A DNA stretch of 30,394 nucleotides, taken from positions 1 to 30,394 of the forward strand of contig CAVZMI010000035.1 of NCBI GenBank assembly GCA_963776275.1, written 5' to 3'. The stretch is from Ignavibacteriota bacterium. Lineage in GTDB: Bacteria > Bacteroidota > Ignavibacteria > UBA10030 > CAVZMI01. Shown piece by piece: positions 3,489-8,372 of this stretch (positions within the stretch are counted from its first letter, which is position 1; each line of letters opens with the position of its first letter). Made by a program: the position numbers and the translations under genes. The notes below the pieces were generated by a model. The model saw only the letters and a list, made by a program, of their open reading frames with translations, made no database searches and had not been told where the DNA came from.

Positions 3489-6218
3489 CTAATGAGCCTC
3501 GAGCCAATTCTTTCCCACGCCGATTTCGATTTCGAGTGGGACGGACAGGAGTTGTGTCGTTTTCATGCACTCTTCAACAAGAGAGCGCATTTGCCGCTCT
3601 TCGGAAGTTGGAACTTCGAACACCAACTCGTCATGAACCTGGAGAAGCATTTTCGATTGAAGTGCGCCGCTAATTATCCTGTGATGGATTTCTACCATCG
3701 CTCGTTTGATCATATCGGCTGCAGTTCCCTGGATCGGCATATTGATTGCCGCACGCTCTTCGAATTCCCTCACCGTCCGGTTTTTATTATTGATGTTCGG
3801 AAGATATCGTCTGCGGCCGGAGAGTGTTTCCACATAACCGTGCTGGCGTGCGAGATTCTTTGTGTCGTGGATATACTGACTCACCTTCGGGAATCTCACA
3901 AAATACCGGTTGATGATCTCTTTCGCTTCGGATTGTGAAATCTCAAGTCGCGTTGCCAGTCCATACGGCCCGATCCCGTACATGATTCCGAAATTCACCT
4001 CTTTCGCTTTGCGCCTCATATCGCGTGTAATTTCTGTCTGTTCGACTCCGAATACCTTCGCCGCTGTGCTTGCATGAATGTCTTCGCGATTTCTGAATGC
4101 TTCCTGCAATCCCGGATCGTCCGACATATGCGCCATAACGCGGAGCTCGATCTGGGAATAATCAGCCGACATGATCGCCATATTGTCGTTGCCGGGGATG
4201 AATGCTTTCCGGATTTCACGTCCTATTTCTGTCCGGATGGGAATATTCTGCAGGTTCGGATCGCTGCTCGATAGTCTTCCGGTTGCGGCGATTGTCTGAT
4301 TGAACGATGTATGCACCCGTCCAGTGTCGGGATGGATAAGCTTTGGAAGAGCGTCGATATATGTCGATTTCAATTTTGTCAGTGTGCGATATTCGAGCAT
4401 CAATTCGACAATCGGATGTGCCAGCCGGAGCGACTCGAGCACCTGAACATCCGTCGAAAAGCCGGTTTTGGTTTTCCGTACCGTCGGCAGTTTCAATTTT
4501 TCGAAGAGGATTACGCCCAGCTGTTGTGTTGAGTTGATATTGAACTCCTCGCCGGCCTGCTCGTAGATCCGGTGAACAAGCTGATCGAGCTGACGCTCGA
4601 GATCTTTTGACATCTGTGCAAGAAACGGAACGTCAAGCCGGACGCCTGTCAGCTCCATTTCGGTCAGGACAGGGATAAGCGGGAATTCGATTTCTTCGCA
4701 AAGCTTTGTCATCGACTGTTTTTCAAGCCGCTCCTGGAGAACAGGGAAGAGCCTGAGCGTGAAATCGGCATCCTCGGCGGCGTATGTAGCGAGACGTTCG
4801 AGCGGAACCTGCCTGATATCGACCCTCGATTTCCCCGTACCGACGAGCTCGTCATAGGAAATCATTTTATACGATAGATACTCTTCGGCAAGAGCATCAA
4901 GGTTGTGCTTTCCATCAGGCCGTATCACATAGCTCGCTACCATTGTGTCAAATGCAATTCTTTTTAGACGCATGCCGTGTTGTGCCAGTACAAGTGCGTC
5001 GTACTTTATATTTTGTCCGATTTTTTTTATCGAGGGATTTTCCAGAACCGGGCCGAGATAATTTTTAAGAACAGCAAGAGGTATCCCGCCAATTCCAACC
5101 GGGATGAAATATGCATCACATTCTGCGACGGCGAGTGAAACGCCGACAAGTTCAGCAGTCATTGCATCCGTAGAGGTTGTCTCCGTATCGATACACAGAA
5201 GCGCCTGCTGCGAGAGTTGTTTACATAACGAAATGAGTTCCGCCTCGTTCGATATAATTTTGTATTGATGACGATCCGTTGTATTATCCGTAAGCGGCTT
5301 AGGCGCTTCAAAAACCAGAGTTTGATCTTCCTGAGGAGCTTCTTTGAGTTTTCGGACGAGCGTTCGAAATTCAAGTGCTGTAAAGAGTCCTGTAAGTTTT
5401 TCAATATCTTTCTTTGCTGCACGGAGTGTATGAAAGTTGATATCGAGCGGGACTTCGGTATGAATTGTCACCAGCTCTTTTGAAAGAAATGCGAGATCTT
5501 TATGAGTTTTAAGTTTTTCCCGCGTTCCTTTCTGCTCAATATCATCGAGATGAGTATAGACCTCGTCGAGGCTTCCGAAGCGTTGAATAAGCGGAATTGC
5601 AGTTTTTTCTCCGATTCCCGGGACTCCCGGCACATTATCCGATTTATCGCCGGTCAATGCAAGGACGTCGATAACCCGGTCGGGCTGGACGCCGAATTTT
5701 TCGGCCACCTCGTTCTCGGCGACAATTTCCAGGTCATTCCCCATTTTTCCCGGGCGGTACATTTTTATAAGGGGTGAAATCAGCTGCATGAAATCTTTGT
5801 CGCCGGTTACAAGGTAGGTCAGCACACCTTCTTTTTCTGCACGTCGGGCCAGAGTTCCCATGATGTCGTCTGCTTCATACCCCGGCACCTCTAGCAATGG
5901 AATGTTGTATGCACGGACGACCTCCTTCAATTTTTCCATCTGCGACGACATGTCGTCCGGCATCTTCTCGCGTGTTGCTTTATACTGTGGATATTTCAGA
6001 TGCCGGAATGTTGGCTCTTTCGTATCGAATACCACTGCGATATGATCGGGCCGTTCTTCATCGAGTACTTTATTGAGAAAGCTTACAAATCCATAGATGG
6101 CGCTTGTATTCTCACCCTTCGAATTCATAAGAGGGCGATTGATAAAGGCAAAATAGGCTCTATATGCAAGAGCCATGCCGTCGAATAAAAACAATTTCTC
6201 CTGGTTCTGACTGCTCAT
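3489..6218 (-). CDS. polA: DNA polymerase I
   Basis: 5'-3' exonuclease (YEADD, GDKSDNVPGVPGIGEKTA), 3'-5' exonuclease (DTET), polymerase motifs ADYSQIELR, RRKAKEVNFGIMYG, QVHDELVFE. Confidence 0.99.
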   Translation of the reverse strand: MSSQNQEKLFLFDGMALAYRAYFAFINRPLMNSKGENTSAIYGFVSFLNKVLDEERPDHIAVVFDTKEPTFRHLKYPQYKATREKMPDDMSSQMEKLKEVVRAYNIPLLEVPGYEADDIMGTLARRAEKEGVLTYLVTGDKDFMQLISPLIKMYRPGKMGNDLEIVAENEVAEKFGVQPDRVIDVLALTGDKSDNVPGVPGIGEKTAIPLIQRFGSLDEVYTHLDDIEQKGTREKLKTHKDLAFLSKELVTIHTEVPLDINFHTLRAAKKDIEKLTGLFTALEFRTLVRKLKEAPQEDQTLVFEAPKPLTDNTTDRHQYKIISNEAELISLCKQLSQQALLCIDTETTSTDAMTAELVGVSLAVAECDAYFIPVGIGGIPLAVLKNYLGPVLENPSIKKIGQNIKYDALVLAQHGMRLKRIAFDTMVASYVIRPDGKHNLDALAEEYLSYKMISYDELVGTGKSRVDIRQVPLERLATYAAEDADFTLRLFPVLQERLEKQSMTKLCEEIEFPLIPVLTEMELTGVRLDVPFLAQMSKDLERQLDQLVHRIYEQAGEEFNINSTQQLGVILFEKLKLPTVRKTKTGFSTDVQVLESLRLAHPIVELMLEYRTLTKLKSTYIDALPKLIHPDTGRVHTSFNQTIAATGRLSSSDPNLQNIPIRTEIGREIRKAFIPGNDNMAIMSADYSQIELRVMAHMSDDPGLQEAFRNREDIHASTAAKVFGVEQTEITRDMRRKAKEVNFGIMYGIGPYGLATRLEISQSEAKEIINRYFVRFPKVSQYIHDTKNLARQHGYVETLSGRRRYLPNINNKNRTVREFEERAAINMPIQGTAADMIKRAMVEIHHRIISGALQSKMLLQVHDELVFEVPTSEERQMRSLVEECMKTTQLLSVPLEIEIGVGKNWLEAH

Positions 6219-6238
6219 ACTATTATATGGACACGATG

Positions 6239-6340
6239 TTATCTGAGTAAGAGAAGTTTCCGGGTTGCGTTAAATTCTCCCGCTTCGATGCGGTAAAAAT
6301 AGACTCCGCTCGGATATCCCTTTGCCGACCATTCTACTTT
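6239..6340 (-). pseudogene. Orphan C-terminal fragment of a T9SS type A sorting domain
   Basis: VEWSAKGYPSGVYFYRIEAGEFNATRKLLLLR* closely parallels the end of the T9SS protein at 26012 (VEWNASCFASGVYYYKLEAGSFTETKKLVLLR*). The upstream frame is AT-rich and lacks the NYPNPFN half. Confidence 0.7.
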
Positions 6341-6558
6341 CAGGTTAAATGTGGTGAAGAAAAGATGTAATATCAAGAAAGAAAAAAAATTTAGGACATG
6401 CATTATAACTTTCGCTTGCATCTCCGTCATATGCCAGCTATATTTAAAGTAGGATATGGAGTAAAAACTCACGGCTCATGACTTCTAAAAAAAACACTTT
6501 TTGTATATTTTCTATGCAAGCACGAAAACCGGTGGTCTAATACAATCTGTATTTATGG

Positions 6559-6787
6559 ATTGCCACGAGCTCGTGCTTTTATGCCCCACGCTTCGTGTTT
6601 TTTACGTCCCACGTTTCCCCGTGGGATCCAGTGGGGTTAGCTCGTGGATGATAAGAGCTGAATATCCATAGGGCTTTAGCCCGAAATTAATCGATGACAG
6701 AGCCTATAGTAAGAATATTTAATATTGGGGGTTAAAACCCTATGATACGAGGAACTTAATATACCACGACCTGAAGGTCGTGGCAAT
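6559..6787. repeat. REPIN-like composite element (four hairpins, terminal inverted repeats) with nested inserts
   Basis: Terminal IR ATTGCCACGA (6559-6568) / TCGTGGCAAT (6778-6787). Hairpins CCACGAGCT[insert]TTAGCTCGTGG, GGGCTTTAGCCC (6671-6682), GGGTTAAAACCC (6729-6740), CCACGACCTGAAGGTCGTGG (6764-6783). Confidence 0.8.
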
Positions 6788-6881
6788 TCATTTGGCATTC
6801 ATTTTTCTCAGGCCGGAGTTGTTATTCAGTGGTCTCGACTCATAACTCATAACCCTAAAAAGCCATTTCAACAGCCCATTT

Positions 6882-8372
6882 ATGTCTCTAAAAGTCTTAC
6901 TGACATGCGAGAAATCGTTCCGGACTAAAGCGCAGCATGCTATCGAAATGCTCGCGATGATTCTCGGCGAGACTGCTCAGTTCGTTCGGAAAGAACAATG
7001 CAAAAGTTCTGATATCGTTCTCTGTTATGGCGGGAGAGACGCTCATCGCCGGCTTCCGGGCAAACATGTTATTATAAGTGGGAGTGAAGAGGCATGGAGG
7101 ATGTTCGATTTAAAGGAGCACTATCCTCATGAGATCGCCCGGCGATGCACGATTAATGGAGAACCGTCATTGGCGCTCTTTTATGACCGTGAGTTCGAAA
7201 AAGATCCTCGAGGAATTGTCGGAAAAAAAGGACGTGATATCGTTATCCATGTCGATATTGTTGCCAGCTCTTTCTTTTTCCTCTCCGGCTGGCAGGAGTG
7301 GCGATCTCCCAATGCCGATATTCATCAGCGGTTTCCGGTCGAATCAAGCATTCAATTTGCTTTCGGTCTGCTGAACCGCCCAATTGTCGATCAATATGCA
7401 ACTCTCCTTGAAAAAGCCCTTAAGAAATTCAGCTGGAGGCGTTCGAGAACCGGAAGGTATCAGGGGAAATCATTTGCAGTTCTGATGACTCATGATATCG
7501 ACCATACGCGAAAATGGACACCGGGAATCATTTATCGTGAATGTGTCCGTTATCTGATTCTAAACCGGCGAAATGATTTTATGAAGGATCGTCTTAATCG
7601 GTTCGGACATTTTCTCAAAATGTTGTCTATACAAAATGATCCCTATAGAAATTCCATTGAAATAATTCTGGCAGCCGAAAAAGCCGCGGGCGCACATAGC
7701 ACGTTCTTTTTTAAGGCCGGAGGTAACGACAGGCGGGATGTGACATATTCACTAAAAAACGCATTCGTCAATAAACTATTGGAAATTCTGCAGAAGGATG
7801 GACATCAGGTAGGACTTCATCCAAGCTACAGCGCGTATTCACAGAAAAGCATGATGGCCGAAGAGCAAAAAAAGCTGGCCGCGGTAGCGGGTGAACCGGT
7901 CGCTGCCGTCCGCGAACATTTTTTACGATTCGAAATGCCTCTCACGTGGAGAATCCAGGATGAGCTTGATTTTGAATACGATTCCACGCTCGGTTTCGCC
8001 GGCCACGAAGGATTTCGCATGGCGACATGTCGTCCGTTCCGCGCATATGATATCGAGCATGACCGCCCGCTCCGCTTATGGGAAATTCCGCTGATCGCGA
8101 TGGATGATACATTCGTATCGTACAGGAAACTGGACGCTTCTGCATCATGGAAAGCGATTCGTGAGTTGTTAGAGACGGTGAAAAAATATCGCGGCGTCGC
8201 CGTATTACTCTTCCATAACAGCTGTTATGATGAACTCGATAATAAGGGCTGGGGAAAGGTTTTTGAGAGTACTGTCCGATGGTGTATCGAGAACGATGCC
8301 GCACTTCTGAACGGTCATGAGGCGCTTGACTCGTATCGCAAAGCATGTGGTAAAATATCTGAAATAAAGTAA
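6882..8372 (+). CDS. Polysaccharide deacetylase-family (CE4/NodB-like) protein with N-terminal extension
   Basis: Motifs THDIDH, GLHPSY, REHFLRF, YDSTLGF, WEIPL, LLFHN. Confidence 0.8.
   Translation: MSLKVLLTCEKSFRTKAQHAIEMLAMILGETAQFVRKEQCKSSDIVLCYGGRDAHRRLPGKHVIISGSEEAWRMFDLKEHYPHEIARRCTINGEPSLALFYDREFEKDPRGIVGKKGRDIVIHVDIVASSFFFLSGWQEWRSPNADIHQRFPVESSIQFAFGLLNRPIVDQYATLLEKALKKFSWRRSRTGRYQGKSFAVLMTHDIDHTRKWTPGIIYRECVRYLILNRRNDFMKDRLNRFGHFLKMLSIQNDPYRNSIEIILAAEKAAGAHSTFFFKAGGNDRRDVTYSLKNAFVNKLLEILQKDGHQVGLHPSYSAYSQKSMMAEEQKKLAAVAGEPVAAVREHFLRFEMPLTWRIQDELDFEYDSTLGFAGHEGFRMATCRPFRAYDIEHDRPLRLWEIPLIAMDDTFVSYRKLDASASWKAIRELLETVKKYRGVAVLLFHNSCYDELDNKGWGKVFESTVRWCIENDAALLNGHEALDSYRKACGKISEIK

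Follow-up and report, generated by a model that had tools for sequence, protein, structure and literature searches.

How can a DNA hairpin come to hold in its loop a second hairpin that is itself interrupted by a relative of the same kind? The question is raised by an intergenic locus in the window, the whole 30,394-nucleotide stretch of DNA analysed here, which is contig C35 of G000, a 3.70-Mb draft genome (38 contigs, 45% G+C) of an Ignavibacteriota bacterium. At this locus the loop of a repetitive extragenic palindromic (REP)-type hairpin carries a 65-nt insert, 6572-6636, ahead of its TT, and the insert consists of two homologous units, a 33-nt inner unit lying inside the loop of a 32-nt outer one. 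Both belong to a family of discrete units with fixed ends, which occupy hairpin loops in a strand-specific orientation and are present at some sites and absent from the corresponding sites in paralogous repeats and in a sister species. It is very probable that they represent a discrete mobile DNA unit. Comparisons were made with G001, a sister species and, in the collection searched, the only other species representing the genus, and with G002, a member of another genus. Coordinates are window positions unless they bear a G000, G001 or L prefix, and those of the principal features are collected in Table 1.

On re-reading of the sequence, the boundaries and the two-unit structure given in a preliminary description of this locus proved exact to the base. 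As that description had stated, removal of 6572-6636 leaves a perfect hairpin, and the resulting sequence, CCACGAGCT-TT-AGCTCGTGG, occurs naturally in two paralogous copies of the surrounding repeat. The outer unit also has an uninterrupted form, found at the orthologous site in G001 and at G000:C23:244250-244370. The 13-nt leader of the inner unit is T-rich, with CGTG at its start and ACG at its end. Zero bases are duplicated at the junctions of both units and no direct repeats are present, and the lack of target duplication claimed earlier was seen at every junction in the window. When 6555-6655 was folded as single-stranded DNA (ssDNA), three nested stems were obtained together with a 3-bp stem in the inner leader, with a minimum free energy of -20.5 kcal/mol (z = -4.63; 0 of 200 shuffled sequences as stable). 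Beyond the host hairpin, GGGCTTTAGCCC is located at 6671-6682.

The state of the same site in the sister species was read from a G001 locus that matches window 5600-7600 at 90% identity. There the outer unit is present and 6594-6626 is exactly absent, the loop reading GCTT and then TCCA. A 21.7-kb contig of a G001-like organism, from a public sequencing run (X1, the only run used, which contains 0.05 of the words), has a joint from 6593 to 6627, with 33 bases skipped. As this contig and G001 both carry a 27-letter replacement at 6694-6775, it confirms the empty state through an independent assembly and not through an independent lineage. The 27 letters stand in place of the 80 bases at 6695-6774 and resemble truncated unit leaders within the second REP hairpin, with the deletion ending inside a nest.

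Two other orthologous loci yielded four further precise differences of one unit each. Three of these are extra units with exact ends in G001 at L025, compared with G000:C23:94975-95275, and they lie in another unit's leader, in a leader T-run and in a main loop, respectively; the fourth, in the pair L117 and L010, is one extra unit in G001, inside a leader. The T-run unit of L025 (compared with G000:C23:95010-95190) is accompanied by one extra T of ambiguous origin, either unit or host. Over the loci compared, four units are private to G001 and one to G000, and the inner unit of the window and others have moved or been precisely lost since the split of the two sister species. A search for filled and empty alleles had been called for in the preliminary description, and they were found between paralogs, between the sister species and in the X1 assembly.

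Other orthologous comparisons revealed whole composite hairpins that were private to one species, inverted or rearranged. The host palindrome GAGCGA-TCCCGA...TCGGGA-GAGTCGA has opposite orientations at the orthologous G000:C6:148200-148780 and L017 (G001), and a whole composite of ~210 nt at the C38 locus (L028:1476-1687), compared with G001:C6, is present only in G000. The host palindromes themselves appear to be mobile or invertible.

Within G000, filled and empty sites could be compared among copies of a mosaic intergenic repeat, at least six of which were recovered by BLAST and alignment. Three BLAST alignments of other copies end at window position 6571, the left boundary given in the preliminary description. 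Among six copies, the hairpin that carries the insert in the window (hairpin 1) is empty in two (G000:C20:293500-293755 and G000:C23:295140-295400), holds a single unit in one, holds a unit within a unit in two (the window and G000:C32:87560-87700) and holds an unrelated 60-nt insert in the remaining one. The inner units of the two doubly filled copies differ in sequence, and their insertion points are one base apart in the loop. The second REP hairpin is empty in four of the six copies (one of them degenerate), contains a single unit in one and contains a unit together with a leader-inserted unit in another; this site is unit-filled in the copies at G000:C20:293520, G000:C32:87760 and G000:C28:54283. 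A census of CCACGAnCT hairpins, the REP type concerned, gave 12 with 2-nt loops and 12 with long 'loops', and manual reading of the latter identified units in seven, other inserts in three and chance pairings in two.

The family comprises about 40-50 units, spread over about 25 intergenic loci. Because the search pattern offered in the preliminary description was too narrow, giving 3 matches in the 3.70-Mb genome (all three of them units in hairpin loops), it was replaced by profile hidden Markov model (HMM) and regular-expression scans with a reversed-genome control. The HMM search returned 40 matches at E up to 10, and a scan for the head motif returned 44 matches in 27 clusters. Complete simple units numbered 26, against 2 in the reversed genome, and a scan tolerating one mismatch of any kind found 32 units in G000 against 4 in the control, so that the family greatly exceeds what chance would produce. 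Unit lengths were 32 nt (n = 26), 33 nt (n = 16), 31 nt (n = 5), 30 nt (n = 2), 29 nt (n = 1) and 34 nt (n = 1). The common plan is a T-rich leader of 12-14 nt, which begins with CGTG or a variant and finishes with ACG or CCG, followed by a 6-7-bp hairpin, YCCCAC(G)...(C)GTGGGR. The edges are constant, the first base being the C of CG(T/G/A)(G/T) and the last being the end of GTGGG(G/A) or GTGAGA, and the same ends were seen across five kinds of host hairpin.

Both sides of the stem have changed in four of its six pairs, namely pair 1 (T-A 33, C-G 9), pair 3 (C-G 42, T-A 8), pair 5 (A-T 44, G-C 5) and pair 6 (C-G 45, T-A 5). The outer triplets of the leader are also complementary in most units (CGT...ACG in 23, CGG...CCG in 4 and CGA...TCG in 1, of 41 units), and the formation of a leader mini-hairpin is probable on the basis of this pairing. 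Window positions 6601-6626 are identical to G000:C23:267967-267992, on another contig, and in G001 the separate loci L019 and L023 carry 32-nt units of identical sequence in host hairpins that differ; these identities suggest that units have been copied from distant sources. The compensatory stem differences, the multiple copies and the sharp boundaries for which the preliminary description had argued or called are thus properties of the family, and its proposal that the unit is a non-autonomous element of very small size, with hairpin loops as its targets, is supported by copy number, fixed ends and filled and empty sites.

Rules of insertion were drawn from 43 innermost units, of which G000 contributed 24 and G001 loci 19. 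Complementary arms of at least 5 bp were present within a few bases of the junction for 25 of the 43, well over both controls: re-pairing of flanks among units gave a mean of 7.7 and a maximum of 12 in 200 trials, and junctions drawn at random from the genome averaged 2.3, with a maximum of 9. The hairpin-loop targets claimed earlier are borne out by this excess. A further 13 innermost units had 3-4-bp arms, mostly those of another unit's leader loop. Five types of host were distinguished, comprising CCACGAnCT (REP-type) hairpins, two GC-rich kinds (CCCGCC and CCCGAT), the main loop of a unit and the leader loop of a unit. The junction step was T^T in 20 units, C^T in 12, T^C in 6, C^C in 3 and T^A in 2, so that a pyrimidine stood on the 5' side in 43/43 and on the 3' side in 41/43. 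Left flanks were variable (TTT 18, TTC 8, CTC 5, CTT 3, others), and the pyrimidine step alone was constant. The junctions at the paralogous and orthologous sites were, like those in the window, free of target duplication. A reading of the junctions as integron attC sites was rejected, as they share no core of the G^TTRRRY type.

In each of the 10 clusters that contain at least two heads (27 heads), a single orientation was found, which means that in every case the unit strand is continuous with the T-rich strand of its target loop. Such a pattern would follow from the handling of single strands or from an asymmetric reading of the target. Scripted peeling of the innermost units regenerated further complete units, 39 being removed at 25 loci in up to three rounds. 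The endpoint, by manual reading, was a plain hairpin at 14 of the 25 loci; four loci, where copies are degenerate, gave none. The REP hairpin loop at G000:C28:54283-54467 contains six units to a depth of four (by eye), where the window shows two levels. All 11 units of G000 with CCG-ending leaders lie inside the leader of a unit with an ACG-ending leader, and one such CCG-type leader insertion is a clean difference between G000 and G001. Each unit adds two T-rich loops and thereby makes its own targets, hence the nesting.

A second, GC-rich family of ~30-nt hairpin inserts, with arms of the CTCCGC/GCGGAG and CCGCC/GGCGG kinds, was observed in the same REP loops. Examples are at G000:C21:243224 (31 nt, in a REP loop), C7:36150-36468 (60 nt), C27:15814 and the upstream REP of L100 (G001). 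Read on the other strand, these inserts also use a T^T step, and the C7 copy appears to be nested in itself. Their use of the same REP loops suggests that insertion can proceed with more than one unit sequence.

Y1 (HUH) transposase genes were considered as a candidate source of the activity. Matches to PF01797 number nine in G000, eight in G001 and nine in G002. One of the G000 genes, on C28, belongs to the CCACGAnCT REP locus; its G001 ortholog is 95% identical, and G002 contains a 61% homolog of it. A CCACGAnCT hairpin lies ~50 nt upstream of this gene in all three genomes, such hairpins stand on both sides of it in G000 and G001, and the largest unit nest lies in the hairpin immediately 3' of it in G000 and G001 alike; the stop codon of the G001 gene falls in that 3' hairpin. 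The units sit within the loop of the 3' flanking REP, so that the host hairpin flanks the Y1 gene directly and the unit only indirectly. Unit heads were present at 4 of the 21 Y1-gene loci examined and absent from the other 17. No parent insertion sequence (IS) with unit-like ends was seen in the flanks of the 21 loci, beyond which no systematic search was made. Three Y1 proteins, the G001 ortholog and the products of two other G000 Y1 genes, were compared with NCBIfam models, and all three passed NF033573 (IS200/IS605) as well as PF01797. The preliminary description had suggested a Y1 HUH gene flanked by the unit; a PF01797 gene with the largest nest in its flanking REP does exist in both species, and a role for its HUH product is circumstantial. 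The link between gene and unit is real but circumstantial, because hairpin-rich Y1 loci offer many targets, G002 is without units and the G000 copy is possibly dead.

The best explanation overall, and one that we hold to be probable, is that these are gene-less mobile units of 31-34 nt, inserted into loops without duplication and moved as ssDNA by a Y1 enzyme; both the enzyme and the single-strand mechanism are what we infer from the pattern of insertion. In such a mechanism a Y1 HUH transposase acting in trans would cut and rejoin the unit as ssDNA, through either cut-and-paste or copy-and-paste. The best candidate would be the IS200/RAYT-like Y1 protein (RAYT, REP-associated tyrosine transposase) of the CCACGAnCT REP locus, an attribution made tentatively and with somewhat less than even confidence. 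The enzyme would bind the main hairpin of the unit, whose foot, CCACG, resembles the REP foot, would cleave at the leader 5' end and at the hairpin's 3' foot, and would then insert the unit at a pyrimidine step within a T-rich loop exposed by hairpin extrusion or in single-stranded DNA. Whole-unit insertion in one orientation, without target duplication and mostly at T^T, would be the outcome.

Several observations weigh against this explanation. A single strong hairpin must serve both ends of the unit, and the leader hairpin has 3 bp at most, with the third pair mismatched in about a third of units, for which reason it is taken as no more than probable. Non-Watson-Crick stem pairs are without strand asymmetry (T-G 5 versus C-A/A-C 5), which is uninformative. 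The target is a loose T-rich step and includes no fixed tetranucleotide. Replication-strand bias was not detected, in a test that is weak with a 38-contig draft genome: judged by GC skew, the G-rich strand carries the unit as written at 12 of 25 loci, and among 14 loci with an absolute skew above 0.03 the C-rich strand does so at 11, opposite to expectation; the unit strand coincides with the majority gene strand at 9 of 25 loci. As there is no outgroup, gain and precise loss are indistinguishable at any single site. The Y1 gene of G000 has an in-frame TAG where G001 has Gln, a residue that belongs to a Trp-Gln motif common to other Y1 proteins, and this copy may, to judge from its reading frame, be dead. 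G002 has the 61% homolog and the same upstream REP without units. With NF047646, the model for REP-associated transposases, one of the three Y1 proteins tested scored 37.6 bits against a cut-off of 80 and the other two gave no hit.

The main rival, which we regard as unlikely though deserving of attention, dispenses with a dedicated enzyme: by copy-choice or gene conversion, a nascent strand would switch between similar hairpins and copy a unit into an empty one. Most hosts are members of the family itself or hairpins with a 5' arm ending in CACG or CCG plus T-rich bases, so that donor and recipient flanks share microhomology on both sides, and copy-choice would account for spread among like hosts. 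The single context shared by all 11 CCG-type-leader units, another unit's leader, fits such copying, as does the occupation of the same REP loop by inserts of unrelated sequence. It is more difficult to reconcile with identical exact ends in five host types with differing arms, with arms of just 6-9 bp, and with the first entry into each host type, which cannot be conversion. Movement of the unit by an enzyme other than Y1, for example a hairpin-loop-specific recombinase or a nuclease-ligase, is favoured by the observations that weigh against Y1, namely the nonsense codon in the G000 gene, the absence of strand bias and the presence in G002 of both gene and REP without units, and insertion sequences of other families are known to target REP hairpins (cited in PMC3116915). 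Nevertheless, no candidate gene other than Y1 was found beside the units, in an analysis that made no genus-specific gene census, and we consider this alternative improbable.

Two further alternatives do not involve mobility. Compensatory stem changes and an intergenic position upstream of a gene could equally be expected of a functional structured RNA or regulatory module under selection, yet no Rfam match was obtained for 6200-6900 at E up to 1, the number, composition and nesting of units differ between orthologous loci, and copies occur in unrelated contexts; as a primary explanation this very improbable reading is close to refuted. Local slippage at the window locus only would be suggested by the homology and adjacency of the two units there, but it is refuted by the copies elsewhere (about 25 loci), by the identity of 6601-6626 to a stretch of another contig (C23) and by the empty site and clean ortholog difference in G001, and the junctions are devoid of direct repeats; virtually no weight is left to it. 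Within the preferred reading of Y1-mediated movement, a more speculative extension, which we think rather unlikely, is that the units are a minimal HUH substrate, with left and right end hairpins fused into 32 nt, and belong to a widespread and barely described class of two-hairpin T^T loop cassettes. If this were true, the smallest transposition unit would be ~30 nt, and the hairpin-rich intergenic DNA of many lineages would be built by recursive self-insertion.

Small dispersed repeats (SDRs) of the cyanobacterial Nostocaceae are the first of the known systems to which the units can be compared, and SDR4, SDR5 and SDR6 are reportedly mobile and said to nest in one another. SDR4/5/6 are dispersed, gene-less, well under 100 nt and described as mobile, the mover being unknown. 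SDR5 is 21 nt long (PMC13756078) and was inserted precisely between the third and fourth base of the palindrome HIP1 (PMC4390886), and according to PMC5861425 no SDR was found outside Nostocaceae. The unit described here is likewise a very small dispersed repeat precisely inserted in a palindromic site. It differs in its length of 31-34 nt, its composition of leader and hairpin, its T-rich hairpin-loop targets and its host, a Bacteroidota/Ignavibacteria-like genus. A second precedent is provided by the GTAG-23 REPs of T. roseum, which, according to Di Nocera et al. 2013 (PMC3733652), are nested in small palindromes, and hundreds of copies of these palindromes are also found empty.

The REP/RAYT system (REPtron) resembles the present one in having a short, imperfect and repeated extragenic palindrome with a terminal tetranucleotide, linked (for the unit only indirectly) to a hairpin-flanked Y1 gene. 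As described in PMC3479197, Y1 enzymes, including those of IS608 type, bind a hairpin and a 4-nt guide, cut ssDNA and transfer strands without duplication, and E. coli TnpA-REP cleaves ssDNA and transfers strands (Messing et al. 2012, PMC3479197). In REP/RAYT, however, a GTAG/CGTC-type tetranucleotide stands at the hairpin foot, whereas here the 4 nt at the stem foot are (T/C)(A/C)CG and the conserved CGTG opens the unit on its 5' side, at a distance of ~9 nt from the stem; the units were for this reason not classed as tagged REPs. Their stems are 6-7 bp, compared with 8-9 bp in CGTC families, they are single and in one orientation rather than dimers, with exact ends given by filled and empty sites, and the Y1 proteins here fall below the NCBIfam REP-transposase cut-off. 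REPINs, defined as two inverted REPs around a spacer (PMC3337134), are similarly non-autonomous and hairpin-forming, with mobilization in trans by a single-copy Y1 proposed by Bertels and Rainey 2011 (PMC3116915) and in PMC3337134. The units here differ in being single, about a third the size and nested in direct orientation. All 10 multi-unit clusters are direct, and the two REP-type hairpins of the mosaic repeat are self-complementary and >100 bp apart. A REPIN assignment was rejected for the units, which form no inverted doublet, and the 'REPIN hairpin' of the preliminary description is here called only a REP-type hairpin of a REP/Y1-gene locus, a REPIN being an inverted REP doublet.

Gene-less derivatives of IS200/IS605 share with the units the lack of duplication, hairpins at or near both ends, strand-specific insertion and the possibility of precise loss (PMC3479197). 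By contrast, the units have no fixed 4-5-nt target and showed no replication-strand bias, the flanks of the 21 Y1 loci contained no visible parent IS whose ends match, and in length a whole unit falls short of a single IS end. A REP hairpin is also the landing site of certain insertion sequences, IS1397 among them (cited in PMC3116915), but these are kilobase-sized and transposase-encoding, compared with 32 nt of non-coding DNA. The designation of miniature inverted-repeat transposable element was rejected, as the unit has no terminal inverted repeats (its termini, CGTG... and ...GTGGGR, are not mutual inverted repeats) and no target-site duplication. The unit resembles an SDR or a nested REP in behaviour and is not a member of a named family. 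The preliminary description had known of no account of this unit; SDRs and palindrome-nested REPs are precedents for the kind, and no literature match was found for Ignavibacteria, for which no REP-like or SDR-like repeats are described in a text search of a sort that cannot detect a sequence motif.

The distribution of the family was assessed with two sequence patterns. A hairpin pattern matched 10 times in G000 and 13 times in G001, and had no match in 39 further genomes from their family and order. A leader pattern, applied to one genome per species, gave 59 loci, 11 of which (12 matches) fall in one record set, the metagenome-assembled genome Bacteroidota bacterium isolate SPRUCE 29, the rest being singletons; on metagenome contigs it gave 93 stretches. 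Among the 141 pattern hits of both scans, 19 were complete units closed by a matching arm, with nine in the SPRUCE 29 record set, nine in one metagenome sample and one in a second sample (L145). The remaining hits were singletons, mostly in GC-rich DNA, which fits a rough by-hand estimate of a few tens by chance. As far as searched, and judging from these matches, the unit family is restricted to one genus.

For decades there has been debate over the way in which REP-like repeats spread; the REPIN doublet is accepted as the unit of mobility, and single hairpins are usually deemed its remnants. In the present case the ends of a single 32-nt unit are set exactly by filled and empty sites among paralogs and two sister species, its kind of target is defined as the pyrimidine step of a T-rich hairpin loop, and a candidate Y1 gene lies beside its largest nest. 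It offers a small, fully specified substrate with which to ask whether a Y1 transposase handles something so short. The 32-33-base two-hairpin unit is among the smallest mobile DNA elements seen, and it extends 'very small mobile repeats', so far a matter of Nostocaceae, to an unrelated phylum. The nests also show a route to complex multi-hairpin intergenic DNA, by growth through recursive insertion.

Table 1. Positions of the units, their host hairpins and surrounding features
Feature	Position	Strand	Details or evidence
Host REP-type hairpin, 5' arm CCACGAGCT	6563-6571	+	Same arm with plain 2-nt loop in two paralogous repeat copies
Outer unit, 5' part	6572-6593	+	Leader 6572-6583 (12 nt), arm CCCCAC 6584-6589, half-loop GCTT 6590-6593
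Inner unit, 33 nt contiguous	6594-6626	+	Leader 6594-6606, TCCCACG 6607-6613, loop 6614-6619, CGTGGGA 6620-6626
Outer unit, 3' part	6627-6636	+	Half-loop TCCA 6627-6630, 3' arm GTGGGG 6631-6636
Host hairpin, loop TT (6637-6638) and 3' arm AGCTCGTGG (6639-6647)	6637-6647	+	Sequence, ssDNA fold, paralogs
Second REP-type hairpin CCACGACCT-GA-AGGTCGTGG, empty in window	6764-6783	.	Sequence, paralogs, hairpin census
Mosaic intergenic repeat, ~290 bp when empty, four hairpins	6490-6840, ends approximate	+	BLAST, alignment of six copies
Mosaic repeat, other copies	G000:C32:87504-87800; C23:244120-244421; C20:293500-293755; C7:36150-36468; C23:295140-295400		
Y1 gene of CCACGAnCT REP locus	G000:C28:53606-53944, within 53573-53990 (L003:1468-1980)		PF01797
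G001 Y1 ortholog	L100:1381-1872	-	Open for 164 residues
DNA polymerase I gene, flanking	3489-6218	-	
DUF7033 protein gene, flanking	6882-8372	+	

In the window, the repeat with its insert occupies the divergent intergenic region between the DNA polymerase I and DUF7033 genes. Across its copies, the mosaic repeat has small inserts at three or more positions, and the centre of the window copy is divergent. Other small repeats were encountered near the nests. A 60-nt insert starting CTGTACTAAAGTAC, ~60 nt upstream of the L025 nest, occurs in G001 and is missing from the corresponding site of G000; it belongs to another small repeat, also found beside other nests. Finally, a stretch of ~295 bp beside a unit-bearing REP (L010:1104-1398; G000:C20, about 138716-139010) is absent from the orthologous G001 locus and occurs elsewhere in G001 at 94% identity (C3:6324-6617), and this stretch is probably another small mobile element.

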